This document shows positions 9,568-49,007 of a stretch of 64,000 bases of DNA, piece after piece (position 1 is the first letter of the stretch; every line of letters begins with the position of its first letter). Under the pieces are notes generated by a model. The model did not search any database. It was not told where the DNA came from and was given only the letters and a program-made list of their open reading frames with translations. A program made the translations under genes and the position numbers. Source of the stretch: an uncultured Candidatus Saccharibacteria bacterium (GTDB taxonomy: Bacteria > Patescibacteriota > Minisyncoccia > UBA6257 > 1-14-0-10-40-38); NCBI GenBank assembly GCA_964543265.1, contig CAZIWN010000002.1:29554-93553 (forward strand), written 5' to 3'.

Positions 9568-11340
9568 TTAACTATATCTCTCTCTGTTTAAATCGTCAAA
9601 TTTTTTTAATAATTCTTTTAAAAGCTTTTCATCACCCATTTTTTCGGCTTCTTTTATTTTTAATTTCAATTCCGAAACAGTATCTTTTAATATGTCTTTT
9701 TTTAACTCTTTTAGGGTTTTAGAAAAATTAGAAATAGAATCTCCTTGAAAAATATCAGACCCGGAATGAAATCTTAGATAATCTGACATTTTTTGCACTT
9801 CAATATCTGAACTATTATTTTCGGTTATATTTTTTATAACTATTTTATAAAATTCTGGAAAAAATATAATATTTTCCAATAAATCCTTCCACAATTCTTG
9901 ATTATTCAACGCCATAGCTATGGCATTTTTAGACAAAGTATCTTTTCTAGAATTAAATTTTTTTAACAAATCTTGTTCCGAAAAATTATCTTCATCTTTT
10001 TTTACAACCTGATTTGGGATCTTTATTAATTTCAACTCCTCTTGAACATCGCGTTCAGAAACACCCACAACATCAGCAATCTCCCTCATCCACAAAGATT
10101 GCTCTATCGGGCTCTTTATCATTTTTAGCTTTGCTAATATTTTCTTTAAATCAGTTTTCTTTTGAAAAGAATCTTTAGTTTTAAATTCTCTAGATTCTCC
10201 TAAAATTGTCTTAATATAAAAATGCATAGCCGGCTCAGCCCTCTTTAATAATTCTTCGCGTAAAAATCCACTATGAGATAAAACAACATCCGCAGCATCT
10301 TTAAAATTTTCTGACTCAAACTCTTTCAGCATCCCGACATTAAAAATCTTAACCGAAAAATCTTCACTAAGCGCCATTTCGTTGGCTCTTTCTGTGGCAA
10401 TTTTTCCAGCCTCATCATTATCGTAGAAAATAATAATATTTTGAGTAATCTTTTTTAAAACATCTAAATGGTCTTTAGTTAAAGATGTTCCAGAACTGGC
10501 AAAAGTATTTTTAAGTCCATCCTGATACAACATAATTAAGTCCATCTGCCCCTCAACCAAGACAGCTAAATTCATTTCTCTTATTATATTTTTTGACTTA
10601 TTAAAACCATAAAGAATTCTTGATTTGTTAAATATTGGAGTCTCTGGAGAATTAACATATTTTCCAGAAGTTTCCGCTTCCGGACTTCCTGGCATTATTC
10701 TTCCGGTAAATCCAACCACTTTTCCAAAACTATTCCATATTGGAAACATTATCCTATCCCTAAATCTATCCCAATAAGTTCCATTATTGGTTTTAAAAAC
10801 CAAACCAGCCCTTTCTATTTCTGACATTTTAAACCCCTTAGAAAGTAAAAATCTAGACAGAGCATCATTGGAGTTTGGAGCCAACCCCATCTCAAACTCT
10901 AAAACGGTCTCTTTCTTTAGTCCCCTCTCCTTTAAATAACTCCTAGCTTTTTCAGCGATTAAAGATTCCGAAAATAAATTATTTTTAAAAAAGTCTCTAG
11001 CAGATTCAACTATCTCATATAAAACATTGTATTCTCTCTCATCCTTTGATCCGGAAATCTTCAAATTAACCCCAGCCTTGTCAGCTAGAATTTTTAAAGC
11101 TTCTATGAATTCTAAATTGTCATGCTTCATTAAAAATCCGAAAATATCACCACCAGCACCACAACCAAAACATTTAAAAATCTGCCTATCCACATTAACC
11201 ATAAAAGATGGAGTTTTTTCTTTATGAAATGGACAGTTTCCCTTAAAATTTCTTCCTGCCGGAAGAAGCGGCATGTATTGCTTTATAAATTCAACAATGT
11301 CTATTTTTTCCTTTACCAAGTCTGATGATTTCTGATCCAT
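9568..11340 (-). CDS. dnaG: DNA primase
   Basis: Zinc-binding domain CPFHKEKTPSFMVNVDRQIFKCFGCGAGGD, TOPRIM region EGQMDLIMLYQDG ... IIFYDNDEAGKIAT. Forms the classic dnaG-rpoD operon. Confidence 0.9.
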   Translation of the reverse strand: MDQKSSDLVKEKIDIVEFIKQYMPLLPAGRNFKGNCPFHKEKTPSFMVNVDRQIFKCFGCGAGGDIFGFLMKHDNLEFIEALKILADKAGVNLKISGSKDEREYNVLYEIVESARDFFKNNLFSESLIAEKARSYLKERGLKKETVLEFEMGLAPNSNDALSRFLLSKGFKMSEIERAGLVFKTNNGTYWDRFRDRIMFPIWNSFGKVVGFTGRIMPGSPEAETSGKYVNSPETPIFNKSRILYGFNKSKNIIREMNLAVLVEGQMDLIMLYQDGLKNTFASSGTSLTKDHLDVLKKITQNIIIFYDNDEAGKIATERANEMALSEDFSVKIFNVGMLKEFESENFKDAADVVLSHSGFLREELLKRAEPAMHFYIKTILGESREFKTKDSFQKKTDLKKILAKLKMIKSPIEQSLWMREIADVVGVSERDVQEELKLIKIPNQVVKKDEDNFSEQDLLKKFNSRKDTLSKNAIAMALNNQELWKDLLENIIFFPEFYKIVIKNITENNSSDIEVQKMSDYLRFHSGSDIFQGDSISNFSKTLKELKKDILKDTVSELKLKIKEAEKMGDEKLLKELLKKFDDLNRERYS

Positions 11341-11408
11341 TGTCTTGATTCTACACTAATAAGTAAAAAAAATTAACAAAAACAACTAATTAGCCTATAA
11401 TCATCAAA

Positions 11409-12566
11409 ATGAAGCTGATATACATAAGTCATTGGCGTTTTCCTTCAGAGAAAACAATGTCTCCATTAATAATGAAAACCTGTTCGGAACTGGCAAGTTC
11501 TGGTTTTGATGTGGAGTTATGGGCTCCCAAAAGAATAAATAAAGAATTTAAAAATATTGACCCACACCAATATCACAATGTCTCTAAAAATTTTGAAATC
11601 AAAAAATTACCAGTCATAGATCTGATTGGCACAATTCCATCCATTGGTTTTCCATTAATGGTAGCGAGTTTCAATCTTTCTCTGTTTATATATTCTCTTA
11701 TCAGAAATTTTTCCCAAAAAGTCATATATTATGGACACGACTTTAGAGATTTCGAATTAATATCTCTTATTTCAAAAAATATTTTTATAGAAATTCACGA
11801 TTTTAATAAGAGTAATTTTAATATTTTAAATAAATTTGTCTTAAGAAAAACAATGGGCTTAATAGTGACTAATAAAATTAAAATTGAACAATTTAAAAAA
11901 GATTTTAATTTGGCTGATAATAAATTCTTACACCAACCAAATGCAGTAGATTTAAAAATGTTTGAAATTGAAAAATCTCAAAACTCAGCAAGGGAAATTT
12001 TAAAACTTCCCAAAAATGAAAAAATAGTGCTCTATACAGGACATTTATTCTCTTGGAAAGGGGTCGATACCTTATTGTCTGCGGCACTACTCTTAGATAA
12101 ATCAATAAAAGTATATTTTGTCGGCGGAACAGATGAAGATATATCCTCGTTTAAAGAAAAACAAAAGAACCTAAATATAAATAACGTTTTTATAATTGGT
12201 AGAGTTCCCCATCAAGAAATACCAATATGGCTCAAATCTGCTGACGTACTAGTTTTACCCAACACAGCCAAAGAAGATGTTTCAAAATACGAAACGTCTC
12301 CTGTAAAAATATTTGAATATATGGCTTCTAGTATTCCAATAGTGGCCTCTGACTTACCATCCATAAGAAATATAGTTAATGAAAAAATGGTTTATTTTTT
12401 TGAGGCAGATAATTCTAAATCCTTATCAGATAAGGTGATCGAGGCCTTAAATAACAAAAAAGAGAGTTTTTCTAAAATTCAAGCCTCTTTAATTGAAGTC
12501 AAAAAATATTCTTGGGAAATTAGAACTAAAAATATAACAAATTTTATAGAAAAACTATTAAAATAA
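11409..12566 (+). CDS. glycosyltransferase, GT-B fold, family 1 (GT4-like)
   Basis: C-terminal half shows the GT1 nucleotide-sugar binding pattern: LYTGHLFSWKGVDTLL, VLVLPN, EYMASSIPIVASDLPSIRNIV. Confidence 0.7.
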   Translation: MKLIYISHWRFPSEKTMSPLIMKTCSELASSGFDVELWAPKRINKEFKNIDPHQYHNVSKNFEIKKLPVIDLIGTIPSIGFPLMVASFNLSLFIYSLIRNFSQKVIYYGHDFRDFELISLISKNIFIEIHDFNKSNFNILNKFVLRKTMGLIVTNKIKIEQFKKDFNLADNKFLHQPNAVDLKMFEIEKSQNSAREILKLPKNEKIVLYTGHLFSWKGVDTLLSAALLLDKSIKVYFVGGTDEDISSFKEKQKNLNINNVFIIGRVPHQEIPIWLKSADVLVLPNTAKEDVSKYETSPVKIFEYMASSIPIVASDLPSIRNIVNEKMVYFFEADNSKSLSDKVIEALNNKKESFSKIQASLIEVKKYSWEIRTKNITNFIEKLLK

Positions 12567-13012: not shown

Positions 13013-15487
13013 CTACTTAATGATTGCCTTACTGTGAAGTTTTAAAAACTTATCATCTATCATTCTCTCTATCTCTCCTCGAGGACTTCCGTAAACCACT
13101 CTAGACAACTCCTTTATTTTTTCAGAAATTCCAGAACCACTCCTCACAGGATCTGTAATTTTTAAACTAAAAGCTGGTGCCGTCTGTCCATCAATTAAAA
13201 TTCTAGCGTAGCAATTAAAATTATCTATATTCATCAAATCATTTGCCGTAAATTCCGGAGTAAACTCTTTTTCCAATAAATCACCATCATCAGCCCCAAC
13301 TCTAAACGCAATCTTTGAACCAACATTCCCAAAAACCGCTTTAGATATATTTTCACTCAACTGCCCCACAAATTGATTGGCAATTATAAGATTCAATTTA
13401 TACTTTCTAGCCTCTGATAGTATTTTCTCGATAGAGTTTGTTGTTACGTTTTGAAATTCATCTATATAAAGATAAAACGGTTTTCTGTCGCCTTCCTGAA
13501 TATTAGACCTAGAAAAAGCAGCTAAAGCAATTTTACCAACAATTATTAAACCAATAAGAGCAGAATTTAGCTCACCAAGTTTACCCTTAGAAAGATTCAC
13601 TAGCAAAATCTTTCCAGAGTCCATAACCTCTCTAAAATTAAAAGAAGATTTTTCCTGCAAAACTATGGGGCGCATTATATCGTTTGAAAGAAACGAATCG
13701 AATTTTGACGATATGTATGGAATCATATTTTGCAAACTTGCCTCTCCCCCAGCCTTTTCAGCGATCTCTTTCCAAAATAATTTAACTAATTGATTTTTAC
13801 ATTTTTCAAGCTTCATTTCCCTGAATTTCTTATCTGCAAAAACCAAATTTATTTCCAACAAAGTATTCCCCAACTCCGGGCTATCCATCACTAAAGAAGT
13901 TGCATTTCTAAAATATTGCTCGAACATTGGACCACCAACGGTTTTCATATCGTATAATTTATTAAATATTTCCAAAAGCTCATTTATCACAAAAGTTTTT
14001 TGTTCAGGAAGCTTTTCGTCATATTCAAGCATATTTAAAGCCAATGGCCTCTCTGTGTCGCTAGGATTAAAATATATAACATCTTTTGCTCTTTCTTTTG
14101 GAATTTTAGACAAGATATCCTCAACAGCATCACCATGCGGATCAATAAAACAAACTCCCTTACCAGAGTTAATATCCTGAATAACCAAATTCTTTAAAAA
14201 ACTAGTCTTACCAGTTCCAGTTTGCCCTATTACATACAAATGCCTTGCTCTGTCATCATCCTTCATGTAAATATTTTTTTCTTCTCCTCTAAAAATATTT
14301 TTTCCTAAAAGAATTCCAGATTCTGCAATGTTAAGCGGTGCAGAACTCTGCTTTGCTTTTGAAGCAGAAAGTAGCGCATGAAAAATATTATTTGGAAAAT
14401 GAATCAAGCTGGATAATTCTTCCGTAGAAACATATGTAGCAGAAGATTTTTTTACAGGAGCTCTAAAGACGAAATCGTAAACAAACTTTTTTAACTTATT
14501 TTTTTGAATTTTTTTTACATTTAATCTATTAACCTCTTCCAAATTAAACTGAGAAAAATAAGAAGAAAATTCATCTATCAAAGCATCTGCCCTCTCTTGT
14601 GTTTGGGCAGAAGATAAGATTCTTAAAGTTGATTCAAAAATTTGTTTTTGTGATTTTGTTTTTAAAGCATTTACCAATCCCTCATCAAAATAAGTATTTA
14701 CACCCAAATCCCCAACTTCATCTTTTTTCTTATTTTTAGACATAGCCTCCCTCAACCCCTTGCCACTTTTAACATTTTTAGCCACATCTGAAAGACGCTT
14801 ATTATAATAACCCTTAGAGTATCTGCCAATAATTTGTATGGCTAAACTTTCGTTTTCTTTTTGGATTTTTGAAAAATTATTCAATAAAACGCTTAAAGGA
14901 TCTATCTCCATGCCATTGTAAGTTTTTATTGGCAAAAATTTATTTTTAGCAGTTATCATGGCTCCAGAAACCATTGACCCAGCTTTAAACATCTTATAAC
15001 CCCTAACATTATTTAAAATTGCCTCTGGATATATTCCTTGAATACTTTTTGATATTGATTTTTCATATTTTTTAGGAATTAAAACAAAAAATTCTATCTG
15101 TTGACCAGAATTCTGAACAACCACCTCCATAGAAAAAAACGGCTCACCATATAAAAAACCCTTAAACCCTCCCCTCTTAATGGTTATAAATTGAGAAAAA
15201 ACCTGTTCCATAATGGAAATTTTTTCTCTAATCTCTGCTAATCCCATTTTTTCCTTTTGGTCCTTGTTTTGATTATTTTTTGGAAATTGAACGTTTATAA
15301 CAGAAAGTCCCAAAGAATCTGAAAAAAATCCTTTTCTTAAAAAGAAATTTCTCAGAAAAATAAAAACAACAGAAATAACTAAAACAAATATAACGAAAAT
15401 TAAAAAACCGCCACTAAATATAAAATTAGTTAAAAAATCAATAATTCCAAAATTATAATCCTGAAACGATGAAAAAATATCGTTCAT
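13013..15487 (-). CDS. type IV coupling protein-like ATPase (VirD4/TraD/TrwB family; N-terminal TM anchor)
   Basis: 824 aa. N-terminal hydrophobic helices are present. The Walker A block VIGQTGTGKTSFLKNLV...GVCFIDPHGD matches TrwB GATGTGKS...VIVDPNGD. Walker B is YLYIDEFQNV. The C-terminal T4CP signature is ARKYKLNLIIANQFVGQL...FGNVGSKIAFRVGADDGDLL. HerA/DUF87-like ATPases share the DPHG motif, so exact family assignment needs HMM confirmation. Confidence 0.7.
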   Translation of the reverse strand: MNDIFSSFQDYNFGIIDFLTNFIFSGGFLIFVIFVLVISVVFIFLRNFFLRKGFFSDSLGLSVINVQFPKNNQNKDQKEKMGLAEIREKISIMEQVFSQFITIKRGGFKGFLYGEPFFSMEVVVQNSGQQIEFFVLIPKKYEKSISKSIQGIYPEAILNNVRGYKMFKAGSMVSGAMITAKNKFLPIKTYNGMEIDPLSVLLNNFSKIQKENESLAIQIIGRYSKGYYNKRLSDVAKNVKSGKGLREAMSKNKKKDEVGDLGVNTYFDEGLVNALKTKSQKQIFESTLRILSSAQTQERADALIDEFSSYFSQFNLEEVNRLNVKKIQKNKLKKFVYDFVFRAPVKKSSATYVSTEELSSLIHFPNNIFHALLSASKAKQSSAPLNIAESGILLGKNIFRGEEKNIYMKDDDRARHLYVIGQTGTGKTSFLKNLVIQDINSGKGVCFIDPHGDAVEDILSKIPKERAKDVIYFNPSDTERPLALNMLEYDEKLPEQKTFVINELLEIFNKLYDMKTVGGPMFEQYFRNATSLVMDSPELGNTLLEINLVFADKKFREMKLEKCKNQLVKLFWKEIAEKAGGEASLQNMIPYISSKFDSFLSNDIMRPIVLQEKSSFNFREVMDSGKILLVNLSKGKLGELNSALIGLIIVGKIALAAFSRSNIQEGDRKPFYLYIDEFQNVTTNSIEKILSEARKYKLNLIIANQFVGQLSENISKAVFGNVGSKIAFRVGADDGDLLEKEFTPEFTANDLMNIDNFNCYARILIDGQTAPAFSLKITDPVRSGSGISEKIKELSRVVYGSPRGEIERMIDDKFLKLHSKAIIK

Positions 15488-15864
15488 AAAATTTCTCTTC
15501 TTTTTAAAAGCTCATTATAATAATCCGGATTTTGAGATAGAGTGTTCCATAAATCTTCCACAGCATTTGGATCTTCTAAAACCATATCAACACCTCTCGC
15601 AATGCCATCTTCAAAAACAACATATATCGGAGAGTCGGACTCCAAAACAACATCTCCCCTACCAACTTCCTTCTTTGGTTTATCGATAGCCCCATTCACG
15701 CTATCTTTACCAGCCACAAAATCCCGAACAATTGTCTCTTTTCTAAGGTGTTGCTCACTAAACCCACCCAAAGCACTCTCGCGCCTAGGAGCTTCTTTTT
15801 TTTCCTCCTTAATAACCTCAATCGTCCCGCCACTTTTATTATTAAAAACATCTTGACCTTCCAT
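15484..15864 (-). CDS. hypothetical soluble protein, translationally coupled to the downstream ATPase (ATGA overlap)
   Basis: 126 aa, no TM, charged. Its stop overlaps the ATPase start by 4 nt. No recognisable motif. Confidence 0.45.
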   Translation of the reverse strand: MEGQDVFNNKSGGTIEVIKEEKKEAPRRESALGGFSEQHLRKETIVRDFVAGKDSVNGAIDKPKKEVGRGDVVLESDSPIYVVFEDGIARGVDMVLEDPNAVEDLWNTLSQNPDYYNELLKRREIL

Positions 15865-15977: not shown

Positions 15978-18900
15978 ATGATTTTACAACCACATAAGCA
16001 CGCATTTAGATCAATATTGCTTACAATCTTTATGGCGAGCTTCGCGCTCTTTTTATTCGTAAATTTTAGAAACACTCCAGAAAATACAGCTTTAGGAGTA
16101 AGCTGTCCGGCTGGCATTGCCGGTCAAATGGATTTATGTCCATCAACCAGAATTCCCCATCAGGGTGATACCGTTCAATTCACTGTTAACACCAGACAAG
16201 CCCAGTCCGGAATATCTGTAACTATTTATATTGGAGGTAGACCAGGAAGCGATGGCTACATCACCAATCCTCAAATTTTCACAACGGGCTCAACAAATTC
16301 TAGTGGAAATTTTGACTTCTCTTATACTGTTCCATCTGGCGACGCCTGGAACACTTTTCACTATTTTAGAGCAGAAGCCACTGTCGGAGGATCTCTCTTA
16401 AAAAGTAATCAAGTAGCCCTAACCGTAATTCCAAAAACAACCGATGCTGACTGGATCTTAACTCCAACGACTTATTGCCAAGTACAAACTGGTGGCAACT
16501 GTACTCCAATTAATAATTCATACCCACTCGACAAAGTTTACCCCCTAGCAGCAACAGGAGACGTAATTTTGCTTGAAGACGGTCAATATAATCATGCAGA
16601 ATTTAAAAGAAGTTGTCATAGTCAAACGGGACCAATGATCTGGGTTATGGCTAGAAACATAAACGGCCCAGTTTTTAATCCAAATCCTGTCGGAAGCAGC
16701 GATACAATATCTTTTAATCAAAAAAGCTGCTGGACTACATTAGTTGGTTTAAAAATTATGGGCGATGATAGAGCTGGAGTTCATTTTGTTACTTCAACCA
16801 ATAATGGACCGTACTTAAATGATCAATTTTTAGAAGTCACCATAGATGGTGGATGGGATTATTACAATAATTCTGGAACTACGGCAAAGTGGGGATTTCA
16901 ATCATACGGACTGCAAGGCTTTAGATATGTCGGAGGGGAAGTAAAAAACGTAGGAGATATGTCTGTTGGAGAACATGCTTTTTATATGCATAATCCAGAC
17001 ACAGACGCTACGGGTAATGCAATTGAACTTAGAGATGTTAATTCATCTAACGTTGGAAGAACATACGTACAAATAGTAAACAGGCCAGATGACTGCAGTT
17101 ATGCCAACCCTTGCCCACCAGGAAGTGGAATAGTCACCATAGAACATGCCGTCATTAAAAATACTGGACTTGAAGGTAATTGCACGGGAGGATCATCTTT
17201 AACTTTTGGTGGAAGAAACGACTACAACATTATAGTAAGTAATACATATGTAGAATCTGGTTTAGATACAGGGCTTTCATGTAAGGGAACTGGAGAATTT
17301 GTCACTTGGGACGGAAACAATGTTCCAGCAGAAAATAACGGCCCAACAACTGTTAGAAATTCATACTTCATAATGGCTCCTAATCAAGGTAATAAGCCAT
17401 TATCAGAAATCGGAACAGTTGATTCAATAACTATAGAAAAAAGCACATTCATTAGCGGAAAAACTTATTCGATGAACGCCAAAAAAAGTGCCGTTACTAA
17501 ATGCTTTGATAGAGATTCAAATATAACTGGAAATCCAGAAAAGAGAGTTACGGTTGACGGCGTAGATTATGCAAATTACCAAGCCATGTTAGACGCCTTA
17601 GGAGATTGCGGAAGCTCTGGAGGAAATCCAACAGTAACCCTTTCAGCCACCGATGCTAATGCCTCAGAAACAGCAGGAGATCCGGGAACATATACAATCT
17701 CAAGAACTGGAAGTACTGCAAATTCTTTATCTGTGAAGTTTTCAGTTTCCGGAACCGCCACCAACGGAACAGATTACAATCAAATCAATTCGCCAGTAAC
17801 AATCCCAGCGGGGGCATCTAGTGTAACAGTGCAACTATCCCCCATAGATGACACCTCTGCTGAATCATCAGAGACAGCAATATTAACCCTAAACTCTGAT
17901 CCATTGTATATAATCGGCTCTCCAAGCTCCGGAACGGTAACTATTGCCGACAATGATAGCGGAGGAGGGCTTCCAACTGTAACGGTTTCAACAACAGACG
18001 CTAATGCTTCTGAAACAGCCGGTGATACTGGAACTATAAAAATAATAAGAACTGGTTCAACAGCCAGTTCGCTAACTGTCTATTTTTCTATCTCAGGAAC
18101 AGCCACTAATGGTTCTGATTATTCCTCCATAAGTTCGCCGATAACAATTCCATCTGGAACCTCAACGGTAGCAATTCAAATCTCTCCAATAGACGACACC
18201 TCTATCGAATCATCAGAAACAGCCATAATCACCATAACCTCAAACGCCAGCTACACAATCGGCTCTCCAAGCTCCGGAACGGTAACTATTACTGACAACG
18301 ATAGTAGCAGCACGCCAACAGTAAGTCTCACAACCACAGACAGTAGCGCATCCGAAGCTGGACTAGATCCGGGAAGCTTCACCCTCTCAAGAACAGGAGC
18401 AACAACCAATCCATTAACTGTTTCTGTCAGTATTTCCGGAACCGCTACTAACGGAACGGATTATAATCAAATAATTTCCCCCATTACAATTCCGGCAGGT
18501 TTATCTTCAACCAATATAAACATTACACCGGTAGACGACATATCAGTTGAAAACACAGAGACGGCTGTTATAACTATTAATTCAGATCCATCTTATATAA
18601 TTGGCTCTCCAAACACCGGAACTGTTAACATCTTAGACAATGACGGAGTTCCACCTCCCCCGCTACCAACAATAAGTGTCATAGCCAATGACCCGACATC
18701 GTCTGAACCTGGATCAGATACTGGAAGCTTTACGGTCTCAAGAACAGGATCAACAACAAATTCCTTGACTATAATATTCACAATGTCGGGCACAGCCACT
18801 AACGGCTCAGACTATCAGCAAATAAATTCACCAGTAACAATTCCAGTAGGATTTTCATCTGTCTTCGTTAACCTAACACCTCTCAATGATTCCAGTATAG

Positions 18901-20198
18901 AAAATACAGAATCTGCAACCCTAACCATATCTCCAGACTCATCATACTCCATCGGTTCACCAAATAGCGCCTCCGTAGATATTCTCGATGATGATAGTGC
19001 TCCTCCACCAACCCCAATAGTCAGCATCGCAGCTAACGACCCAACAGCCTCTGAATTAGGACTAGATAATGGAATAATAACCATCTCCAGAAATGGCTCA
19101 ACAATATCCCCTCTCACAGTATCTTTCATAATCTCAGGAGACGCTATAAATGGCACAGACTATAATCAAATATTTTCATCAGCCACAATAGGAAGCGGTC
19201 TCTCTTCTGTTTCTATAAATCTAACACCGATCAACGATACAATTATAGAAAATACAGAGACCATAACATTAACAATAGCCTCCGATCCAAACTACGTAAT
19301 AGACACTCAAAACACCGCCACGGTCAACATTCTAGATGACGACAACACCCAGCCAAATCCCCCACCACCACCAACAAATCCGACAAACACCCAGCAGGCA
19401 CCTTCCAACTTCTCTGGATTAGCTCTTTCACCAAGTAAAATATATCTTAGCTGGAATTTGGTTTCTGGAGCTTCTGGAATAGAATTGTCTGAAAGTTCAG
19501 ATAATATTACCTTTGGTAAAATATATAATTTACCAGGAAATTATTACTACTATAAATTAGACGTAGTACCCGGAAGTACTCATTACTACAGAGTTAGAAG
19601 CTATGATAGTTCAGGAAGCTACTCGAGCTATTCAAACTCAACCCAGGTTTCAACCTCAAATTCAACGTCGCAGTTTACTAAGCTTCTTTATCAAGGAGTT
19701 AGCGACAAAGAAGTTTCCATACTTCAAGAGTGTCTAAAAACAGATTCTACTATTTATCCAACCGGTAAAATAACTGGCTACTTTGGACCATTAACCGAAA
19801 CTGCTGTTAGAAACTTCCAAAATAAATATGGAATAAATTCGATAGGTATAGTTGGACCACTCACAAGAGCTAAACTCAACACCGTATGCTCCCCATCATC
19901 TACAAGCTATCAATCACCAGCCGCCACAGCTCTAAAAATATCTGTAAATTTCAATCTAAGTTTTGACACGATTCTTGGTCTTGGAAGTTCAGGTGATCAA
20001 GTCTCTCTTCTTCAGGCTGTTTTAGCCAAAAATCCTAGTCTTTATCCTTCAGGAATCATTTCTGGCTACTTTGGACCATTAACCGAAACTGCTGTTAAAA
20101 ACTTCCAAAATAAATACGGAATAGAGCCGCTGGGAACGGTTGGCACAAAAACAATAATAAAACTAAACGAAATAAAGTCAGCAGGAATTAATCCATAA
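15978..20198 (+). CDS. giant cell-surface protein: N-terminal membrane anchor, right-handed beta-helix-like domain, 5 Calx-beta repeats, FN3-like domain, 2 peptidoglycan-binding (PG_binding_1) domains
   Basis: 1406 aa. Calx-beta units read TV(T/S)xSxTDxxASExxxDxGxxxISRTGSTxxxLxVxxxxSGTATNGxDYxxIxSPxTIPxGxSSxxxxxxPxxDxxxExxETAxxTxxS...IGSPxxxxVxIxDxD, five times. A Pro-rich linker PPPPTNPTN follows. C-terminal duplicated LxQGVSDKEVSILQECL...ITGYFGPLTETAVRNFQNKYGI is a PG-binding-1-like motif. Confidence 0.8.
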   Translation: MILQPHKHAFRSILLTIFMASFALFLFVNFRNTPENTALGVSCPAGIAGQMDLCPSTRIPHQGDTVQFTVNTRQAQSGISVTIYIGGRPGSDGYITNPQIFTTGSTNSSGNFDFSYTVPSGDAWNTFHYFRAEATVGGSLLKSNQVALTVIPKTTDADWILTPTTYCQVQTGGNCTPINNSYPLDKVYPLAATGDVILLEDGQYNHAEFKRSCHSQTGPMIWVMARNINGPVFNPNPVGSSDTISFNQKSCWTTLVGLKIMGDDRAGVHFVTSTNNGPYLNDQFLEVTIDGGWDYYNNSGTTAKWGFQSYGLQGFRYVGGEVKNVGDMSVGEHAFYMHNPDTDATGNAIELRDVNSSNVGRTYVQIVNRPDDCSYANPCPPGSGIVTIEHAVIKNTGLEGNCTGGSSLTFGGRNDYNIIVSNTYVESGLDTGLSCKGTGEFVTWDGNNVPAENNGPTTVRNSYFIMAPNQGNKPLSEIGTVDSITIEKSTFISGKTYSMNAKKSAVTKCFDRDSNITGNPEKRVTVDGVDYANYQAMLDALGDCGSSGGNPTVTLSATDANASETAGDPGTYTISRTGSTANSLSVKFSVSGTATNGTDYNQINSPVTIPAGASSVTVQLSPIDDTSAESSETAILTLNSDPLYIIGSPSSGTVTIADNDSGGGLPTVTVSTTDANASETAGDTGTIKIIRTGSTASSLTVYFSISGTATNGSDYSSISSPITIPSGTSTVAIQISPIDDTSIESSETAIITITSNASYTIGSPSSGTVTITDNDSSSTPTVSLTTTDSSASEAGLDPGSFTLSRTGATTNPLTVSVSISGTATNGTDYNQIISPITIPAGLSSTNINITPVDDISVENTETAVITINSDPSYIIGSPNTGTVNILDNDGVPPPPLPTISVIANDPTSSEPGSDTGSFTVSRTGSTTNSLTIIFTMSGTATNGSDYQQINSPVTIPVGFSSVFVNLTPLNDSSIENTESATLTISPDSSYSIGSPNSASVDILDDDSAPPPTPIVSIAANDPTASELGLDNGIITISRNGSTISPLTVSFIISGDAINGTDYNQIFSSATIGSGLSSVSINLTPINDTIIENTETITLTIASDPNYVIDTQNTATVNILDDDNTQPNPPPPPTNPTNTQQAPSNFSGLALSPSKIYLSWNLVSGASGIELSESSDNITFGKIYNLPGNYYYYKLDVVPGSTHYYRVRSYDSSGSYSSYSNSTQVSTSNSTSQFTKLLYQGVSDKEVSILQECLKTDSTIYPTGKITGYFGPLTETAVRNFQNKYGINSIGIVGPLTRAKLNTVCSPSSTSYQSPAATALKISVNFNLSFDTILGLGSSGDQVSLLQAVLAKNPSLYPSGIISGYFGPLTETAVKNFQNKYGIEPLGTVGTKTIIKLNEIKSAGINP
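17627..19350 (+). repeat. five tandem ~345-bp intragenic repeats encoding the Calx-beta modules
   Basis: Unit starts recur at ~17627, 17972, 18315, 18666 and 19014 (ccaacagtaac / ccaactgtaac / ccaacagtaag / ccaacaataag / ccaatagtcag). Units are related but diverged, so they are not recent duplicates. Confidence 0.8.
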
Positions 20199-20207
20199 TT
20201 AAAACAA

Positions 20208-20783
20208 ATGTCATATAATCCAAAAAAATACGAATCACTTTTAGGACTTCAGGGATTCAGCGATGCCCTATTGAAAAATCACTTCACTCTTTATGAAGGT
20301 TACGTAAAAAACGTTAATTTAATAATGAAAGAGTTAGAAGCCATGGTTAAAGAAAATAAAACGGGAACTCCAGCGCATTCTGAAATACAGCGCCGTTTTG
20401 GTTGGGAATGGAACGGTATGCGACTTCACGAACTCTATTTTGAAAACATGACCAAATCCCCATCCCCTCTTGGCGCTGGGCAATTAAAAAATTTGATAGA
20501 AAAAATTTATGGCAAATTAGAAAATTGGGAGAAAGATTTCAGAGCCTTAGCCTCAATGAGAGGAATTGGTTGGGTTATTCTTTATCATGACCCATCTGAT
20601 AATCAACTTTTTAATGTTTGGGTTAATGAACATGACATGGGTCACCTTGCAGGACTAAAACCATTATTAGTTTTGGATGTTTTTGAACATGCCTACACTC
20701 TAGACTATGGCATCAAGAAAGCTGATTATCTTGAAACTTTTATGAAATCCATTGATTGGAATGCTGTAGAAAAAAGAATTTAA
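20208..20783 (+). CDS. Fe/Mn superoxide dismutase family protein (divergent)
   Basis: 191 aa. The C-terminal DVFEHAYTLDYGIKKADYLETFMKSIDWNAV matches the SOD D-x-W-E-H-AYYLDY...W..V(N)W metal-ligand region. N-terminal ...HFTLYEGYVKNVN aligns to HHxKHHxxYVNNxN with substitutions. Confidence 0.7.
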   Translation: MSYNPKKYESLLGLQGFSDALLKNHFTLYEGYVKNVNLIMKELEAMVKENKTGTPAHSEIQRRFGWEWNGMRLHELYFENMTKSPSPLGAGQLKNLIEKIYGKLENWEKDFRALASMRGIGWVILYHDPSDNQLFNVWVNEHDMGHLAGLKPLLVLDVFEHAYTLDYGIKKADYLETFMKSIDWNAVEKRI

Positions 20784-32666: not shown

Positions 32667-32785
32667 CTGCCGGCATAGCCTACTTTCCCGACCACCAAAG
32701 CAGCAAGTATCATCAGCTTTATACGGTTTCACTTCCGAGTTCGGAAAGGGATCGGGTGGGTCACGTATAAACAAAACACCAGCAG
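32667..32785 (-). rRNA. rrf: 5S rRNA
   Basis: Minus-strand sequence CTGCTGG...CCGAACTCGGAAGTGAAAC...GGTCGGGAAAGTAGGCTATGCCGGCAG has the helix I closing pair and the conserved CCGAAC/GAAGTGAAAC loop C region. ~119 nt. Confidence 0.85.
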
Positions 32786-32911
32786 ATAAAAATCCAGAAA
32801 CGTTAATAAAGAATATATTTATAGAATCAATAACCGATACAAAATAGTCATTTGGACTTTAAATTTTGATATTTAAAGTTATCATAACGTGCTTTCCGTT
32901 ACGAAAAATAT

Positions 32912-36028
<3,117 letters not shown>

Positions 36029-36149
36029 ACATATATATTTCTCGTAACGGAAAATACATTATTTCCCGTTACTTAAAGTAATTTCACAAATGACTTGTTG
36101 TCTTTCATTCTACTTAAAAATGCTCTTTTGTACCTGTGTATTTCTACAC

Positions 36150-45593: not shown

Positions 45594-47774
45594 TTATTGC
45601 CTTAAAGTCGAAATAAAATCTTTCATTTCTTCTCTTAATATATTCCAATCATACTTACCCCATACAAATTTAAAAGCCTTCTTAGACAAATCATCTCTAA
45701 GCTCTTTATTGTTTAAAATTAAAATTATTTTATTAGCCAAATCATTTTCGTCTTCTATTTTCATCTCTAATCCATTTTCACCATCCCTTAAAAAATCCGC
45801 TATTCCTCCAACTCTTGGAGCTATTATTGGCAAACCAAGAGCCATAGCCTCCAAAAAAGAACTTCCCAACCCCTCAGATCTAGATGGCCTAATGAAAACA
45901 TATGCCTCTCTTAAAAAATCTGGAATTTTATCATATTCAACCTGCCCCTTAAATGAAACCAAATTAGAAATTCCCAAATCAAAAGCTAATTTTTTTAAAT
46001 TATCTTCTTCTGGACCACTACCCGCAATTTCTAAAACCGAATTAAATTTCTCCTTAGAATTTTTTGCTAAATCTCTAGCCTTGGCAAAAGCTTTTATTAA
46101 AATATCTATGCCATTTTTATTAACCAATCTAGAAGTTGTTACTATTCTTTTAGCACCAACAAAATTAATGGGCAAATCAAAATCTTTTTTAAAAACCTCG
46201 AAATCAACTCCATTAGGAATTATTTTAATTTCTGATTTAGCCCCATGTTTTTTAGCAAATTCTCCCAAATAAGAACTTATAACTTGAATTTTATCCGCCT
46301 TTTTGAAAATCATTTTCCATAAAGGATAAAATATACCCACCCTTCTTAATATGTGACTTTCGGAATCTCCCTCCTGTAAAGTTAAAATAAAAGGAATCTT
46401 TGGATGTCTCAATTTAAACAATAGCGCCGCAAATCCTCCATAAGAAGCCATCATTCCCCAAATAGCGTCGAATGGCTTTTTTTTATGCTCAATCTCGGCT
46501 CTTCTCCAGGCCCTAAAAACATAAAGTATTTTTTCGAAACGCCTACCATAATAATCTCCAGATCCTCCCCTACCAACGCGAATTATGCTCGCACCAGAGT
46601 TTTCATCTATTCCCTCCCATTCAGCATTAAATTTATTGGTAAAAATTTTAAATCCAAAAGGCATTCTCTTTATAAATTCTCTAAGAGCAATTTCAGCTCC
46701 ACCCTCAAAAGGAAAATATGCCAAAGAAAAGACTGCAATATTAGAATTGTCCGCAAAAATCTTTCTTGTTACTGAAGAAGAAAACTCGGTTATTTTTTCC
46801 TCTTCCAAACCGACTAACCAATCCTGATTTTTCAAAAACCAATCTATAAATATTTTAACTCCATCCTCAATTTTAACTTTTGGCTTAAATCCAAAATCCT
46901 TATTTGCCCTCGAAGTATCGGCGATGGTAGCCGGAACATCTCCAGACTGAATCGGCATCAATTTCACCTTAGCTTTAATTCCTAGATTTTTTTCAATTAA
47001 ATGAACAAATTTTTTAAGAGACGTTGAGTCTGGCCCTCCAAGATTATAAATCTTACATCCCCTTATATCTTTTTTAATTATTCCCATTATTCCATCAACA
47101 ATGTCGCTTACGTAAGTGAAATTTCTCGTCATCTCTCCATTATTAAAAAGCATTATCTCTTTTCCCTGAATAATGTTTTTAGCAAACTTAAACAAAGCTA
47201 AGTCTGGCCTTCCATATTCTCCATAAACCGTAAAAAATCTTAAGCCGACAGTATCCATTCCCGACAAGTTATGATAAGAATATGCCAAGAGTTCATTAGC
47301 TCTTTTAGAAACTGCATACATAGACATCGGACTGCTAACGTCCTGACTCTCAGAAAAAGGCATTTCTTTATTGGCTCCGTAAACGGAACTAGAAGAAGCG
47401 TATAAAACTTTTTTAATACCCAAAGCCCTAGCTCCCTCGAAGATATTTAATGTGCCAATATAATTAGACTCTGCATAAGCCCAAGGATTTATTAATGAAT
47501 ATCTAACACCCGCCTGAGCAGCTAAATGAATTATTAAATCTGGTTTTTCTTTAGAGAAAATATCCTTAAGTTTTTCATAATCAACAATGTTTGTTTTATA
47601 AAATTTAAACTTTGGAAATTTACCTAAAATATTATTTCTGGCATATTTCATCCTCACATCGTAATAGTCTGTTATACAATCAATTCCAACCACACTCCAC
47701 CCCTCAGACAACATCCTCTTAGCAAGATGAAAACCTATAAATCCAGAAGTTCCGGTAATGAGCGCTTTTTTCAT
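45594..47774 (-). CDS. bifunctional fusion: NAD-dependent epimerase/dehydratase (UDP-sugar 4-epimerase-like SDR) plus C-terminal GT1 glycosyltransferase
   Basis: N-terminal Rossmann ITGTSGFIGFHLAKRML, catalytic SSSSVYG...YAVSK (YxxxK). C-terminal ~370 aa has SEGLGSSFLEAMALGLPIIAPRVGGIADFL, the GT1 motif. Confidence 0.8.
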   Translation of the reverse strand: MKKALITGTSGFIGFHLAKRMLSEGWSVVGIDCITDYYDVRMKYARNNILGKFPKFKFYKTNIVDYEKLKDIFSKEKPDLIIHLAAQAGVRYSLINPWAYAESNYIGTLNIFEGARALGIKKVLYASSSSVYGANKEMPFSESQDVSSPMSMYAVSKRANELLAYSYHNLSGMDTVGLRFFTVYGEYGRPDLALFKFAKNIIQGKEIMLFNNGEMTRNFTYVSDIVDGIMGIIKKDIRGCKIYNLGGPDSTSLKKFVHLIEKNLGIKAKVKLMPIQSGDVPATIADTSRANKDFGFKPKVKIEDGVKIFIDWFLKNQDWLVGLEEEKITEFSSSVTRKIFADNSNIAVFSLAYFPFEGGAEIALREFIKRMPFGFKIFTNKFNAEWEGIDENSGASIIRVGRGGSGDYYGRRFEKILYVFRAWRRAEIEHKKKPFDAIWGMMASYGGFAALLFKLRHPKIPFILTLQEGDSESHILRRVGIFYPLWKMIFKKADKIQVISSYLGEFAKKHGAKSEIKIIPNGVDFEVFKKDFDLPINFVGAKRIVTTSRLVNKNGIDILIKAFAKARDLAKNSKEKFNSVLEIAGSGPEEDNLKKLAFDLGISNLVSFKGQVEYDKIPDFLREAYVFIRPSRSEGLGSSFLEAMALGLPIIAPRVGGIADFLRDGENGLEMKIEDENDLANKIILILNNKELRDDLSKKAFKFVWGKYDWNILREEMKDFISTLRQ

Positions 47775-47852: not shown

Positions 47853-49007
47853 ATGAAAAGTCATAAAACTAAAATCCTCTATATAATAACCAAATCTGAC
47901 GTAGGCGGAGCTCAAAAATACGTGACCGACCTCTCAAATAATATTAATCCTGATATTTTTGAATCAAAAATAATTTATGGCGGACAGGATATAAAATCTC
48001 TATCCAACAAAACAAATCCTGGCTTATTTTTTTGGAATGATTGGAAGGCTATTTTTGAAATAGTAAAAATCTTAAGAAAAGAGTCTCCAGACATTATTCA
48101 TCTTAATAGCTCTAAAGCAGGAGTTTTAGGATCTCTCGCTGGACTGATTTATAAAAAAACCACTAATCAAAAATTAAAAATTATTTTTACTGCTCATGGT
48201 TGGATATTTAATCCTCAAAATAAGATTTCAAAATTAGAACATTTTTCCTACATAGCCCTCCATAAAATCTCTAGTCTTTTTCAAGACATAGTTATTAATG
48301 TCTCAAATTACGATAAAGAAATCGCTCTAAAATTTAACATAGCCAATCCTAAAAAATTAAAAGTAGTTTGGAATGGAATATACGAAAATATTAATTTTTT
48401 AAAGAGAGATGAGGCTAGAACGTTATTGCTTAAAAAAATACAAAACCAATCCCCAATCAAAATCACTCCAACAGAATTTCAAAACTCCAACATGGTAGGA
48501 TCAATCGGCAGACTAGTTAAAGAAAAAGATTATGAAACCCTAATCAAAGCTGCAAAACTAACAAATGAATCTATTTTTATAATTATTGGCGACGGATACG
48601 AAAAAGAAAAATTAGAAAATTTAATCAGATATTTTTCCTTAGAAAACAAATTTTTTCTTATCAAAAATGAAGGTAATGATGCTAGGTTTTTAAAAGCCTT
48701 TGATGCCTTTATTTTATCTTCTGTAAAAGAAGGTCTCCCCTACACATTAATAGAGGCGATGTCTTCTATGGTTCCAGTTATAGGAACTAAAACTGGCGGC
48801 ATAACAGAAATAATTAAATCTCAAAATTCAGAAAATGGAATCCTGGTAAATGTTAAAAATCCTCAAGAAATTACCCAGGCCATCGAAAATCTGAGAACCA
48901 ATCAAAATTTAAGAGAAAAGTTAACTAAGAATGCTTATAGCTTTTTTAAGAATCATTTAACTCTTAAGAACATGGTTCAGAGTACAGAAAAAATCTATCT
49001 AGAATAA
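47853..49007 (+). CDS. glycosyltransferase family 1
   Basis: 384 aa. DVGGAQKYV N-terminus. C-terminal KEGLPYTLIEAMSSMVPVIGTKTGGITEII. Confidence 0.75.
   Translation: MKSHKTKILYIITKSDVGGAQKYVTDLSNNINPDIFESKIIYGGQDIKSLSNKTNPGLFFWNDWKAIFEIVKILRKESPDIIHLNSSKAGVLGSLAGLIYKKTTNQKLKIIFTAHGWIFNPQNKISKLEHFSYIALHKISSLFQDIVINVSNYDKEIALKFNIANPKKLKVVWNGIYENINFLKRDEARTLLLKKIQNQSPIKITPTEFQNSNMVGSIGRLVKEKDYETLIKAAKLTNESIFIIIGDGYEKEKLENLIRYFSLENKFFLIKNEGNDARFLKAFDAFILSSVKEGLPYTLIEAMSSMVPVIGTKTGGITEIIKSQNSENGILVNVKNPQEITQAIENLRTNQNLREKLTKNAYSFFKNHLTLKNMVQSTEKIYLE

Follow-up and report, generated by a model that had tools for sequence, protein, structure and literature searches.

Alginate lyase PsAly of Paenibacillus sp. 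FPU-7 (PDB: 6kfn) carries on its PB1 sheet an active-site stripe of Lys128, His154/Arg156, Glu181/Tyr184, Lys221 and Asp250/Lys252; Tyr184/Lys221 form the catalytic pair and Glu181/Glu216/Asp219 the cation site (PMC6796002). Phage tailspikes such as CBA120 TSP2 (5w6p), KP32gp38 (9qrm) and the K1 lyase (7w1c) are trimeric and attach to the particle by their N-termini. S. pneumoniae PfbA (3zpp/4mr0) and the binding region of L. reuteri SRRP (5nxk) are non-catalytic beta-helix adhesins anchored via LPXTG and sortase. PsAly belongs to CAZy family PL31, a name not used in the paper describing it. Tandem Calx-beta modules with Asp/Glu motifs for Ca2+ serve as extenders in giant adhesins (V. cholerae FrhA-type and the Ca2+-dependent adhesins of Pseudoalteromonas) and occur likewise in NCX1 (CBD1/CBD2). 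Few adhesins and pili of the CPR/Patescibacteria have been implicated experimentally, and host recognition, attachment and breaching are largely obscure in these organisms (PMC10633639). Here we describe, from a 64,000-nucleotide stretch of DNA (hereafter the window), a 1406-residue protein of a tiny, probably host-dependent CPR/Patescibacteria bacterium. Its domain types are already familiar; what is new is a rare, unnamed head family that may cut or grip host-cell sugars.

Gene, source organism and export

The 1406-aa open reading frame given in the preliminary description was recovered at the same coordinates, on the + strand (Table 1), and its ATG start is backed by conservation of the N-terminus in two orthologs, P0001 and P0002. 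The RpoB of the source organism is nearest to those of Ca. Harrisonbacteria and other Parcubacteria, which on this marker places the organism in the Parcubacteria group of the CPR. As for the gene, it appears to be native, since its GC3 (0.29) is the same as that of neighboring genes and part of the locus is syntenic in a Ca. Pacebacteria MAG (GCA_009694925.1). Housekeeping genes surround the locus and glycosyltransferase genes lie close by; a second large surface protein encoded in the window carries a PG_binding_1 domain adjoining its N-terminal end.

Table 1. Coordinates of the gene and of the features of its product within the window
Feature	Coordinates	Strand	Residues	Basis and remarks
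Complete CDS	15978..20198	+	1406 aa	ORF list; ATG start; stop codon included
N-terminal hydrophobic segment (SILLTIFMASFALFLFVNF)	16011..16067	+	12-30	Sole Kyte-Doolittle 19-residue window >1.6
Ig-like beta-sandwich	16128..16427	+	~51-150	AF2 strands, Foldseek; N-terminal to beta-helix
Right-handed parallel beta-helix head	16452..17600	+	~159-531, C-terminal capping helix 534-541	Unnamed family
Invariant polar stripe	16887..17084	+		Family conservation; putative active or binding site
Calx-beta R1	17628..17972	+	551-665	345 bp; Pfam, repeat register, NCX1 CBD1 alignment
Calx-beta R2	17973..18314	+	666-779	342 bp; Pfam (best stretch aa 667-775), repeat register
Calx-beta R3	18315..18665	+	780-896	351 bp; Pfam, repeat register; PPPP linker at end
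Calx-beta R4	18666..19013	+	897-1012	348 bp; Pfam, repeat register
Calx-beta R5	19014..19361	+	1013-1128	348 bp; Pfam, repeat register; then Pro-rich linker (NTQPNPPPPPTNPT)
FN3-like domain	19392..19661	+	~1139-1228	Alignment to P0001 and P0002 segments
PG_binding_1 domain 1	19704..19877	+	1243-1300	Best Pfam stretch; first copy of 288-bp direct repeat
PG_binding_1 domain 2	19992..20165	+	~1339-1396	Second Pfam stretch; second direct-repeat copy

The N-terminal hydrophobic segment is preceded by a basic n-region, and P0001 and P0002 conserve this region as well as the h-region. Following the h-region, which is 19 aa long, three orthologs conserve an A-L-G / (V/I)-(S/N)-C-P motif that fits a signal peptidase I site, with the putative cleavage site 10 residues downstream of the h-region. 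The segment is predicted to be either a Sec signal peptide, possibly cleaved at A-L-G before V41, or a signal-anchor. A motif scan of the protein detected neither an LPXTG-like nor an RTX motif, and this, together with 12 cysteines in the head, points to an extracellular location. We rejected a sortase-anchored surface protein, as both an LPXTG-like motif and a hydrophobic window at the C-terminus are lacking, and likewise a T1SS RTX adhesin, as GGxGxDxUx nonapeptide repeats are absent and the protein has a Sec-type N-terminal hydrophobic segment instead. The FrhA-type and Pseudoalteromonas adhesins, by contrast, are exported by a T1SS and bear RTX repeats as well as a C-terminal secretion signal, both lacking here, where the C-terminus is predicted to bind peptidoglycan.

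The head domain and its invariant polar residues

The Ig-like domain (AF2 strands at model residues 22-120, pLDDT >95) matched Ig/macroglobulin-like and dextranase N-terminal domains in Foldseek searches and is found in only part of the head family. The domain that follows has a three-sheet right-handed beta-helix fold, pectin-lyase-like at the clan level, as had been proposed for the N-terminal region. The Pfam Beta_helix match anticipated in the preliminary description was not obtained: a scan of the 1406-aa protein itself recovered neither Beta_helix (PF13229) nor Chondroitinas_B (PF14592), models that match 7 and 4, respectively, of 76 family members. The N-terminal 550 aa belong to a rare family of 107 representative clusters, for which no Pfam, NCBIfam or PHROG model was found. 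It includes stand-alone heads, soluble secreted proteins of ~400-540 aa from diverse lineages with classical cleavable signal peptides, and the genomic contexts of the relatives displayed no recurrent carbohydrate-utilisation neighborhood.

In the N-cap only, at positions 47-167, the profile of the family aligns with PL6, PL31, PL9 and chondroitinase B (E down to 6e-13), and the conserved core (aa 274-484, profile A4) has no PDB match at E<=10. In comparisons with PL6 (chondroitinase B 1dbg/1ofl, AlyGC 5gkd, BcAlyPL6 7dmk) and PL9 (Pel9A, 1ru4) the match ends before the catalytic coils, and the Lys/Arg pair and Asn/Glu/Glu Ca2+ site of PL6 have no alignable counterpart in the head. Membership of PL6 was rejected on the basis of the N-cap-only match and the core result. 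The dN/dS of the head against an 86%-identical ortholog is 0.04; the domain is under purifying selection and strongly constrained.

Examination of conservation across the family revealed an invariant polar stripe comprising K304-W305-G306, E332-H333-x-x-Y336-x-H338-N339 and G360-R361-T362-x-x-Q365-x-x-x-R369. Among 69 sequences with ~25% pairwise identity, W305, Y336, R361 and Q365 are conserved in 100%, and K304, E332, H333 and R369 in 94-99%. In successive coils the first strand begins with one of these motifs, and from the modeled strand register the residues would share a single strand from coil to coil, the arrangement known from active-site clefts of beta-helices. This would be the geometry of the PB1 stripe of PsAly (PMC6796002). 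The two proteins nonetheless share just 12% identity, and the profile of the head family's conserved core does not match PsAly; the order of residues also differs (K, H/R, E..Y, E.D.K, D.K in PsAly; K-W-G, E-H..Y.H-N, R-T..Q...R in the family), as does the number of acids, with three cation-binding acids in PsAly against one invariant acid in the stripe. This single invariant acid argues against a classical two-carboxylate glycosidase. Because the core matches no solved protein, putative catalytic roles are assigned to the stripe only from position and chemistry. At position 395, 86% of the family carry Asp, but both our protein and P0001 have Asn, a substitution that could alter activity if the Asp binds a cation or takes part in catalysis.

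Stalk, anchor and modular swapping

Calx-beta (PF03160) was recovered in five stretches (E = 6.4e-47; 158.9 bits vs a cut-off of 27), confirming the five modules reported earlier. R1 'IDDTSAESSE' aligns with 'IDDDIFEEDE' of NCX1 CBD1, and its 'DND' with 'DDD' (2fws/2dpk/3us9); the patterns (D/N)D-x3-E-x2-E and D(N/D)D are kept in all five modules. In NCX1 CBD1 the acidic motifs that coordinate Ca2+ are the DD-x-x-x-E-x-x-E loop and a D-D-D at the C-terminal end. The modules thus retain the residues of predicted Ca2+ sites, which fits the Ca2+ binding proposed for this protein. The FN3 assignment is probable, by alignment and not by direct match: aa 1139-1228 returned no fn3 (PF00041) match at E<=10, but share 32-34% identity, a conserved Trp and a Y-x-R-x-x-x-Y core with the corresponding regions of P0001 and P0002, which reach 32.4 and 39.4 bits against an fn3 gathering cut-off of 25. 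PG_binding_1 (PF01471) was recovered in two stretches (E = 7.4e-23; 80.9 bits vs a cut-off of 23), in accord with the two domains described before. Relatives have other proteins that combine it with FN3, and it is present in the second surface protein of the window, which suggests a recurrent anchor. With a beta-helix tip, a stalk of five Calx-beta and one FN3, and two PG_binding_1 domains, the protein has the architecture of the fibrillar adhesin class.

Among relatives the head is kept while stalk and anchor vary, with five, three or one Calx-beta, a C-terminal TM helix, or none. P0001 combines three Calx-beta with Big_7, fn3 and one PG_binding domain; P0002 has one Calx-beta, two Big_7, fn3 and two PG_binding domains; P0003 has Cys-rich repeats and, instead of the PG-binding pair, a C-terminal TM helix followed by an RKK tail; and head-only homologs lack any wall-binding domain. 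These swaps would place the C-terminus at the cell. The TM helix of P0003 and the cleavable signals of the stand-alone heads together point to a cell-proximal C-terminus and a cleaved N-terminal signal, and weigh against the tethering at both membrane and wall that the preliminary description envisaged. The head would accordingly face outward, at the distal end.

Functional implications

This evidence is in keeping with the proposed surface protein that is tethered to the cell wall, binds Ca2+ and is carbohydrate-active or adhesive. We see roughly even prospects for a more specific reading of the sequence, namely a glycan-active (lyase-like) enzyme or lectin that is anchored in the wall and displayed on a stalk. 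Such a protein would be exported by Sec and consist of three functional blocks. In the head block (aa ~41-545), made up of the Ig-like sandwich and the beta-helix, the Lys/Glu/His/Tyr/Arg/Gln stripe along one sheet would form a cleft that binds glycan and works by lyase-like chemistry, in which a Tyr/His pair acts as acid and base and Arg/Lys/Gln neutralise the substrate carboxylate; the likely substrate would be an acidic surface polysaccharide. The stalk, in which short Pro-rich linkers connect five Calx-beta modules and one FN3, might be stiffened by Ca2+ at the module junctions into a rod ~25-30 nm long, and the two C-terminal PG_binding_1 domains would fix the protein to the cell's own peptidoglycan by non-covalent binding. 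This architecture would put the head tens of nanometres from the cell, and its target could be a host-cell or matrix glycan, by analogy with phage tailspike depolymerases.

The term adhesin used previously goes further than the evidence: the invariant polar stripe of the head is of the kind found at beta-helix active sites, and some homologs are secreted as heads alone, so that an enzyme is at least as likely. A non-catalytic fibrillar adhesin, whose lectin-like head (as in PfbA and SRRP) grips a host polysaccharide or protein through the stripe, is possible if doubtful: adhesin ligands differ among hosts, and the strict invariance of the stripe at ~25% identity across very different organisms therefore favors catalysis, while soluble homologs without an anchor would be unable to attach. 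Unlike PfbA and SRRP, moreover, our protein uses PG_binding_1 rather than LPXTG and bears an invariant ionisable stripe. We regard as improbable a reverse or double tether, in which an uncleaved N-terminal anchor keeps the head at the cell's own membrane and the PG_binding_1 pair bridges to its own wall or, from the far end of the stalk, grasps host peptidoglycan. The 19-aa h-region with no canonical AXA directly after it, the conservation of the n- and h-regions in P0001 and P0002, and the generic peptidoglycan binding of PG_binding_1, which makes host peptidoglycan a conceivable ligand, are in its favor; yet the signal peptidase I-like motif of the three orthologs, the signal peptides of the stand-alone heads, the basic-tailed TM helix of P0003 and the near-N-terminal PG_binding_1 of the second surface protein, which implies a cell-proximal role for the domain, speak for the opposite orientation, and the peptidoglycan of a diderm host would be inaccessible.

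Very unlikely, in our estimate, is a housekeeping role, with an autolysin-type head remodeling the cell's own glycopolymer (e.g. teichuronic-acid-like) and no action on a host. PG_binding_1 is usually attached to wall hydrolases, NCBIfam gives partial matches to SleB and peptidoglycan hydrolases (via PG_binding_1 only), and the housekeeping neighbors, synteny in a relative and nearby glycosyltransferase genes would suit such a role. However, a rigid stalk of that length is ill-suited to action inside the own wall, head-only homologs have no wall-binding domain, and stalk length differs among close relatives, as expected of an outward function dependent on reach.

The glycan-active reading can be extended, speculatively and on the unlikely side, to a CPR cellular analogue of the phage tailspike, with a new polysaccharide-lyase (or epimerase/hydrolase) head on a Ca2+-stiffened stalk rooted in the cell's own peptidoglycan, which would cut host capsule or EPS so that pili or a T4SS reach the envelope. 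In contrast to tailspikes, our protein is cell-borne and would be attached by its C-terminal PG_binding_1 pair, and the PHROG search gave no match; PsAly, in turn, is a 33-kDa soluble enzyme without stalk or anchor. Were the analogy true, stalk length (five, three or one Calx-beta, or Big_7 swaps) would be adjusted to how thick the host glycan layer is, and K-W-G / E-H-x-x-Y-x-H-N / G-R-T-x-x-Q-x-x-x-R would be the active site. If active, the unnamed beta-helix family could be a new CAZy family; if the head is a plain lectin, this is merely another modular bacterial surface protein. The locus offers a concrete candidate for CPR host interaction, with a native, constrained head and a clear putative active site, and the stalk and anchor variation of its orthologs provides a natural experiment on surface-protein reach.

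Repeats at the DNA level

The Calx-beta modules are encoded by five in-register DNA copies with start-to-start spacings of 345/342/351/348 bp, bounded here at 17628..19361 (17627..19350 in the preliminary description). The PG_binding_1 pair is also a direct DNA repeat (19711-19880 and 19999-20168, 73% identical). The concern raised earlier over assembly collapse or expansion appears overstated: the five Calx-beta units are all distinct, the longest exact matches are 34 nt among them and 36 nt in the PG pair, and small-k assemblies break at exact repeats and do not collapse, the 36-nt repeat (at 19774 and 20062) being the breakpoint of an independent short-read contig. Collapse or expansion is unlikely at this locus. 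Tandem Repeats Finder reported nothing at the Calx-beta array because the copies are too diverged, their pairwise identities being 56-70% (nucleotide) and 47-71% (amino acid). Between copies, synonymous sites are saturated, with a dN/dS of 0.15-0.35. Other taxa hold positional orthologs of the first and last modules, R5 having its counterpart in the final module of P0230 (65% identity), all of which upholds the view of an old duplication held under selection.

Domain architecture and repeat structure

The gene for the surface protein opens with an ATG and encodes 1406 aa at exactly the coordinates and length given in the preliminary description (see the table of features). A Pfam scan recovered both the five Calx-beta modules (E 6.4e-47, five stretches) and the two PG_binding_1 domains (E 7.4e-23, two stretches) that had been proposed there, far over the curated cut-offs, while NCBIfam returned partial domain-level matches only, to the NCX 'caca', SleB and PG hydrolase models, by way of these same domains. 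The beta-helix and FN3 domains that had also been named gave no Pfam match in this protein, either whole or as excised segments at E<=10 (noise only); the former was recovered instead in an AlphaFold2 model, and the latter by transfer from two relatives, P0001 and P0002. We take aa 1139-1228 to be an FN3-like domain on the strength of 32-34% identity to segments of P0001 and P0002 that pass the fn3 cut-off, with which it shares a conserved Trp and a Y-x-R-x-x-x-Y motif.

The Calx array consists, in DNA terms, of five direct copies that keep perfect register (spacings of 345, 342, 351 and 348 bp), with pairwise identities of 56-70% in DNA and 47-71% in protein; these units are too diverged for Tandem Repeats Finder, which reported no repeat in the gene. 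The PG_binding_1 pair constitutes a second direct repeat (288-bp spacing, 73% identical). The first Calx module shares 82% identity with its counterpart at the start of the P0001 array, and the fifth finds its closest relative (65%) in the last module of P0230, a partial C-terminal ortholog from Ca. Pacebacteria. The array is therefore older than the divergence of these lineages, as the earlier suggestion of an old duplication would have it, and its inner copy number has changed since. That suggestion had been coupled to a warning that the locus is prone to assembly collapse or expansion, which seems overstated. The longest exact match among the units is 34 nt (R1 versus R2, at 17912 and 18257) and all other pairs share at most 15 nt; an artefact of copy number is judged unlikely because inflation would need near-identical units, whereas all five are distinct. 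What these repeats do is fragment small-k assemblies, as seen from where contigs break: a short-read (Logan) contig assembled independently from SRR12487045, which matches the window at 100% over 4373 nt, begins at 20068, within the second copy of a 36-nt exact word of the PG pair (19774 and 20062), and the contig end of P0230 falls inside its Calx array.

Features of the window discussed in the text
Feature	Position	Strand	Remarks
VirD4/TraG-like type IV coupling ATPase with overlapping ORF	13013-15864	-	824 aa; TrwB_AAD_bind, TraG-D_C; overlapping 126-aa ORF without Pfam match
Surface protein	15978-20198	+	1406 aa
Calx-beta R1	17628-17972	+	DNA repeat register
Calx-beta R2	17973-18314	+	DNA repeat register
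Calx-beta R3	18315-18665	+	DNA repeat register
Calx-beta R4	18666-19013	+	DNA repeat register
Calx-beta R5	19014-19361	+	DNA repeat register
Fe/Mn superoxide dismutase (SOD)	20208-20783	+	
23S rRNA	32668-36031	-	span given together with the adjacent 5S rRNA
Epimerase/GT4 fusion	45594-47774	-	726 aa; NAD-dependent sugar epimerase/dehydratase (GDP-mannose 4,6-dehydratase-like) + GT4
GT4 glycosyltransferase	47853-49007	+	adjoins the fusion gene
Second large protein	49095-52490	-	1131 aa; PG_binding_1 at aa 74-116

The head domain: fold and conserved residues

To characterize the N-terminal head (aa 1 to ~550) we built an AlphaFold2 model from a trimmed alignment of 69 sequences (pLDDT 92.1, pTM 0.92; a single-sequence run gave a pLDDT of 35). 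In the model, an Ig-like beta-sandwich (aa ~51-150) is followed by roughly ten coils, each made of three short strands (aa ~159-531), and by a C-terminal capping helix. Foldseek searches with it recovered weak PDB matches, with low TM-scores and identities of 7-16%, and generic tailspike folds only in BFVD. Conservation was scored over the 69 sequences, which are ~25% identical to the window protein: W305, Y336, R361 and Q365 are invariant, K304, E332, H333, T362 and R369 are conserved in 94-99%, and H338 and N339 in ~75%. When mapped on the secondary structure of the model, the conserved motifs begin the first strand in each of five successive coils, in the order K304-W-G, E332-H-x-x-Y-x-H-N, G-R361-T-x-x-Q-x-x-x-R369, G404-G-S-x-x-T and T438-G. 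These residues are thus predicted to form one continuous stripe along one sheet, an arrangement that may be likened to that of beta-helix lyases. For instance, in PsAly, the alginate lyase of Paenibacillus sp. FPU-7 (PDB: 6kfn), conserved Lys128, His154/Arg156, Glu181/Tyr184, Lys221 and Asp250/Lys252 line the PB1 cleft, Tyr184 and Lys221 being catalytic (PMC6796002).

The sole acid of the invariant stripe is E332, with D/E372 conserved in 90% and D395 in 86% of the sequences. From this we infer that the head is better suited to lyase or epimerase chemistry, in which a Tyr/His/Lys/Arg acid-base pair would be combined with neutralization of a substrate carboxylate, than to a two-carboxylate glycosidase mechanism. 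Position 395 (codon 17160-17162), an Asp in 86% of the family, is Asn both here and in P0001, the closest ortholog, a change that could alter a cation or catalytic site. Comparison with the 86%-identical head of P0001 gave a dN/dS of 0.04, with synonymous sites saturated, pointing to strong purifying selection. Further, 12 of the 14 cysteines of the protein lie in the head, consistent with an extracellular, disulfide-stabilized domain.

Sequence relationships of the head

An exhaustive HMMER search of 1.84 billion representatives recovered 107 clusters of head relatives at E<=1e-3, 60 at E<=1e-10 and 12 at E<=1e-30; all those examined are singletons or doubletons, unnamed or labelled 'hypothetical'. 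When aa 1-554 served as query, a word-indexed search across 5.8 billion proteins had returned zero matches, a limit of the tool and not an absence of relatives, since that collection includes P0001 as a cluster representative. A scan of contigs from GTDB species-representative genomes with the head found no relatives, and metagenome contigs yielded just two short, distant loci. Neither PHROGs nor NCBIfam holds a family model for the head, and a phmmer search of the PDB with aa 1-554 gave noise only. A profile of the family did recover PL6 alginate lyases, PsAly, Pel9A and chondroitinase B (E 6e-13 to 7e-4); this match is confined to the N-cap and the first coils, around a 'PGD-I-L--G-Y' region, and a profile restricted to the core (aa 274-484) matched nothing in the PDB at E<=10, so that catalytic residues cannot be transferred from any solved enzyme. 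Taken together, these sequence searches argue for a distinct, unnamed family within a well-known fold.

Modular relatives, stalk and topology

The head occurs in several architectural contexts.

Domain architectures of proteins sharing the head
Protein	Architecture
Window protein	head + 5 Calx + FN3 + 2 PG_binding
P0001	head + 3 Calx + Big_7 + FN3 + 1 PG_binding
P0002	head + 1 Calx + 2 Big_7 + FN3 + 2 PG_binding
P0003 (1051 aa)	head (51% identical) + long Cys-rich MopE/DUF4215-type repeats + C-terminal TM helix with basic tail
Stand-alone heads	~400-540 aa, nothing C-terminal, classical cleavable signal peptides

The organisms that encode the stand-alone heads are phylogenetically scattered and often of high GC, one MAG being labelled Thermoproteota. 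Conversely, the FN3 + PG_binding_1 cassette is joined to other N-terminal parts in two metagenomic relatives (P0242 and P0246). This modularity suggests that function resides in the head as a unit, that the stalk is an adjustable spacer and that the C-terminus is the cell-proximal anchor. The strongest argument for the last of these is the C-terminal TM helix of P0003, a natural anchor swap informative for topology.

The acidic motifs by which NCX1 CBD1 coordinates Ca2+ are retained in every Calx module (e.g. 'IDDTSAESSE' of R1 lines up with 'IDDDIFEEDE', and 'DND' or 'DDD' at the C-terminal position with 'DDD'), in keeping with the proposal of a Ca2+-binding surface protein. The putative sites fall at the module tip, which is the junction with the next module, so that Ca2+ may plausibly stiffen the array. 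Short, Pro-rich linkers (GVPPPPLP, SAPPPTP and NTQPNPPPPPTNPT) join the stalk domains, and from typical domain lengths we take the stalk to span ~25-30 nm. The protein contains no LPXTG motif, RTX repeat or second hydrophobic segment.

A second large protein of the window (1131 aa), encoded next to the glycosyltransferase genes, is Ser/Thr/Gly/Ala-rich (GC2 0.55) and has a PG_binding_1 domain near its N-terminus as its sole Pfam match; it is probably another wall-anchored surface protein.

Proposed function and alternatives

These observations can be combined in a model in which the protein would be exported via Sec, with its N-terminal signal probably cleaved, and anchored non-covalently in the cell's own peptidoglycan by the two PG_binding_1 domains, so that a Ca2+-loaded Calx/FN3 rod would project the beta-helix head outward. 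The head would then bind an acidic surface glycan and most likely cleave it by beta-elimination. By analogy to phage tailspike depolymerases, the targets of an obligate epibiont might be host capsule, EPS or secondary wall polymers. We consider this model as a whole, with an exported, wall-anchored and stalk-borne glycan-binding head that is most likely lyase-like, to be about evenly poised between right and wrong. The main rival, that the head is a non-catalytic lectin or adhesin, would share the same display on the cell and differ in the use of the conserved stripe; we hold it to be rather improbable.

A double tether, as in the preliminary description, or a reversed topology seems to us unlikely. 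The wall side of that tether would be provided by the PG_binding_1 pair, but its membrane side is less likely, the signal being probably cleaved: an A-L-G | (V/I)-(S/N)-C-P motif conserved in three orthologs fits a signal peptidase I site, although at a long spacing from the h-region. That the head remodels the cell's own wall we regard as very improbable. The six genomic contexts of relatives examined do not discriminate among these readings and contain no recurrent gene neighborhood. Their sole carbohydrate hint is a weak rhamnogalacturonan-lyase-like match (PcRGLX_2nd) in a 956-aa protein (9587-12457 of a groundwater metagenome contig), whose gene lies downstream of that of the stand-alone head P0004 and slightly overlaps it; an 889-aa DUF7948/SBBP protein precedes P0004. 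The 4589-nt contig of P0001, the closest full-length ortholog, is not syntenic with the window, and, judging from its translation, the oppositely oriented gene downstream of P0001 resembles SmpB.

Each domain type is known, and surface proteins with a tip, a repeat stalk and a wall anchor are of a known kind; nothing categorically unexpected is demonstrated. What is new is the unnamed head family, which has no Pfam, NCBIfam or PHROGs profile, a distinctive invariant motif set and a core sequence unlike any solved protein, and which is possibly a new CAZy family. New as well is that CPR bacteria join this head to a stalk of Calx-beta and FN3 modules with PG_binding_1 anchors, and that the stalk has evidently been retuned in a modular way from one ortholog to another. 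As a candidate for surface interaction between CPR bacteria and their hosts, the protein is well defined and testable.

Genomic context

The window RpoB has a 100% match on a 133-kb NCBI contig, and its closest named relatives are Candidatus Harrisonbacteria and other Parcubacteria/Paceibacteria MAGs (70-76% identity). This places the window on a CPR/Patescibacteria chromosome, in line with the small-genome, probably host-dependent type of organism proposed earlier. The surface-protein gene lies among housekeeping genes: alaS, rpoD, dnaG, ssb, rpsF and rpoC/rpoB, genes for Fe/Mn-SOD, PAP2, a VirD4/TraG-like coupling ATPase and a GT4 glycosyltransferase, and the 23S and 5S rRNA genes. Its GC is 0.405 versus ~0.31-0.37 in neighbors (~0.32 as a single figure). 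Horizontal transfer as the cause is ruled out, because GC3 (0.294) equals that of the neighbors (0.20-0.33) and the extra GC is found at codon position 2 (0.50), reflecting a composition of 13% Ser, 12% Thr, 9% Gly and 6% Pro. Moreover, P0230 (GCA_009694925.1) matches the window protein at 66% identity from the last Calx module through FN3 to the two PG domains and shows the same gene order (gene-SOD-PAP2-...-SSB-S6-rpoC-rpoB); hence the locus is vertically inherited in the lineage. The SOD gene starts 9 nt past the surface-protein stop codon, no terminator-like site is seen between them on the + strand, and the adjacency is kept in the Pacebacteria locus, making co-transcription of the two probable. 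In a promoter/terminator scan, sites were no more numerous than in shuffled sequence.

The coupling ATPase and its overlapping ORF are divergently oriented from the surface-protein gene, with no other T4SS genes seen nearby, and a functional link of the ATPase to the surface protein is not evident. The epimerase/GT4 fusion and the adjoining GT4 gene look like a small surface-glycan synthesis cluster. No 16S rRNA gene lies upstream of the 23S gene within the 64-kb window, so the rRNA operon appears to be unlinked; the 23S rRNA, at 3120 nt against a model of 2925 positions (~195 nt extra), may carry an insertion.
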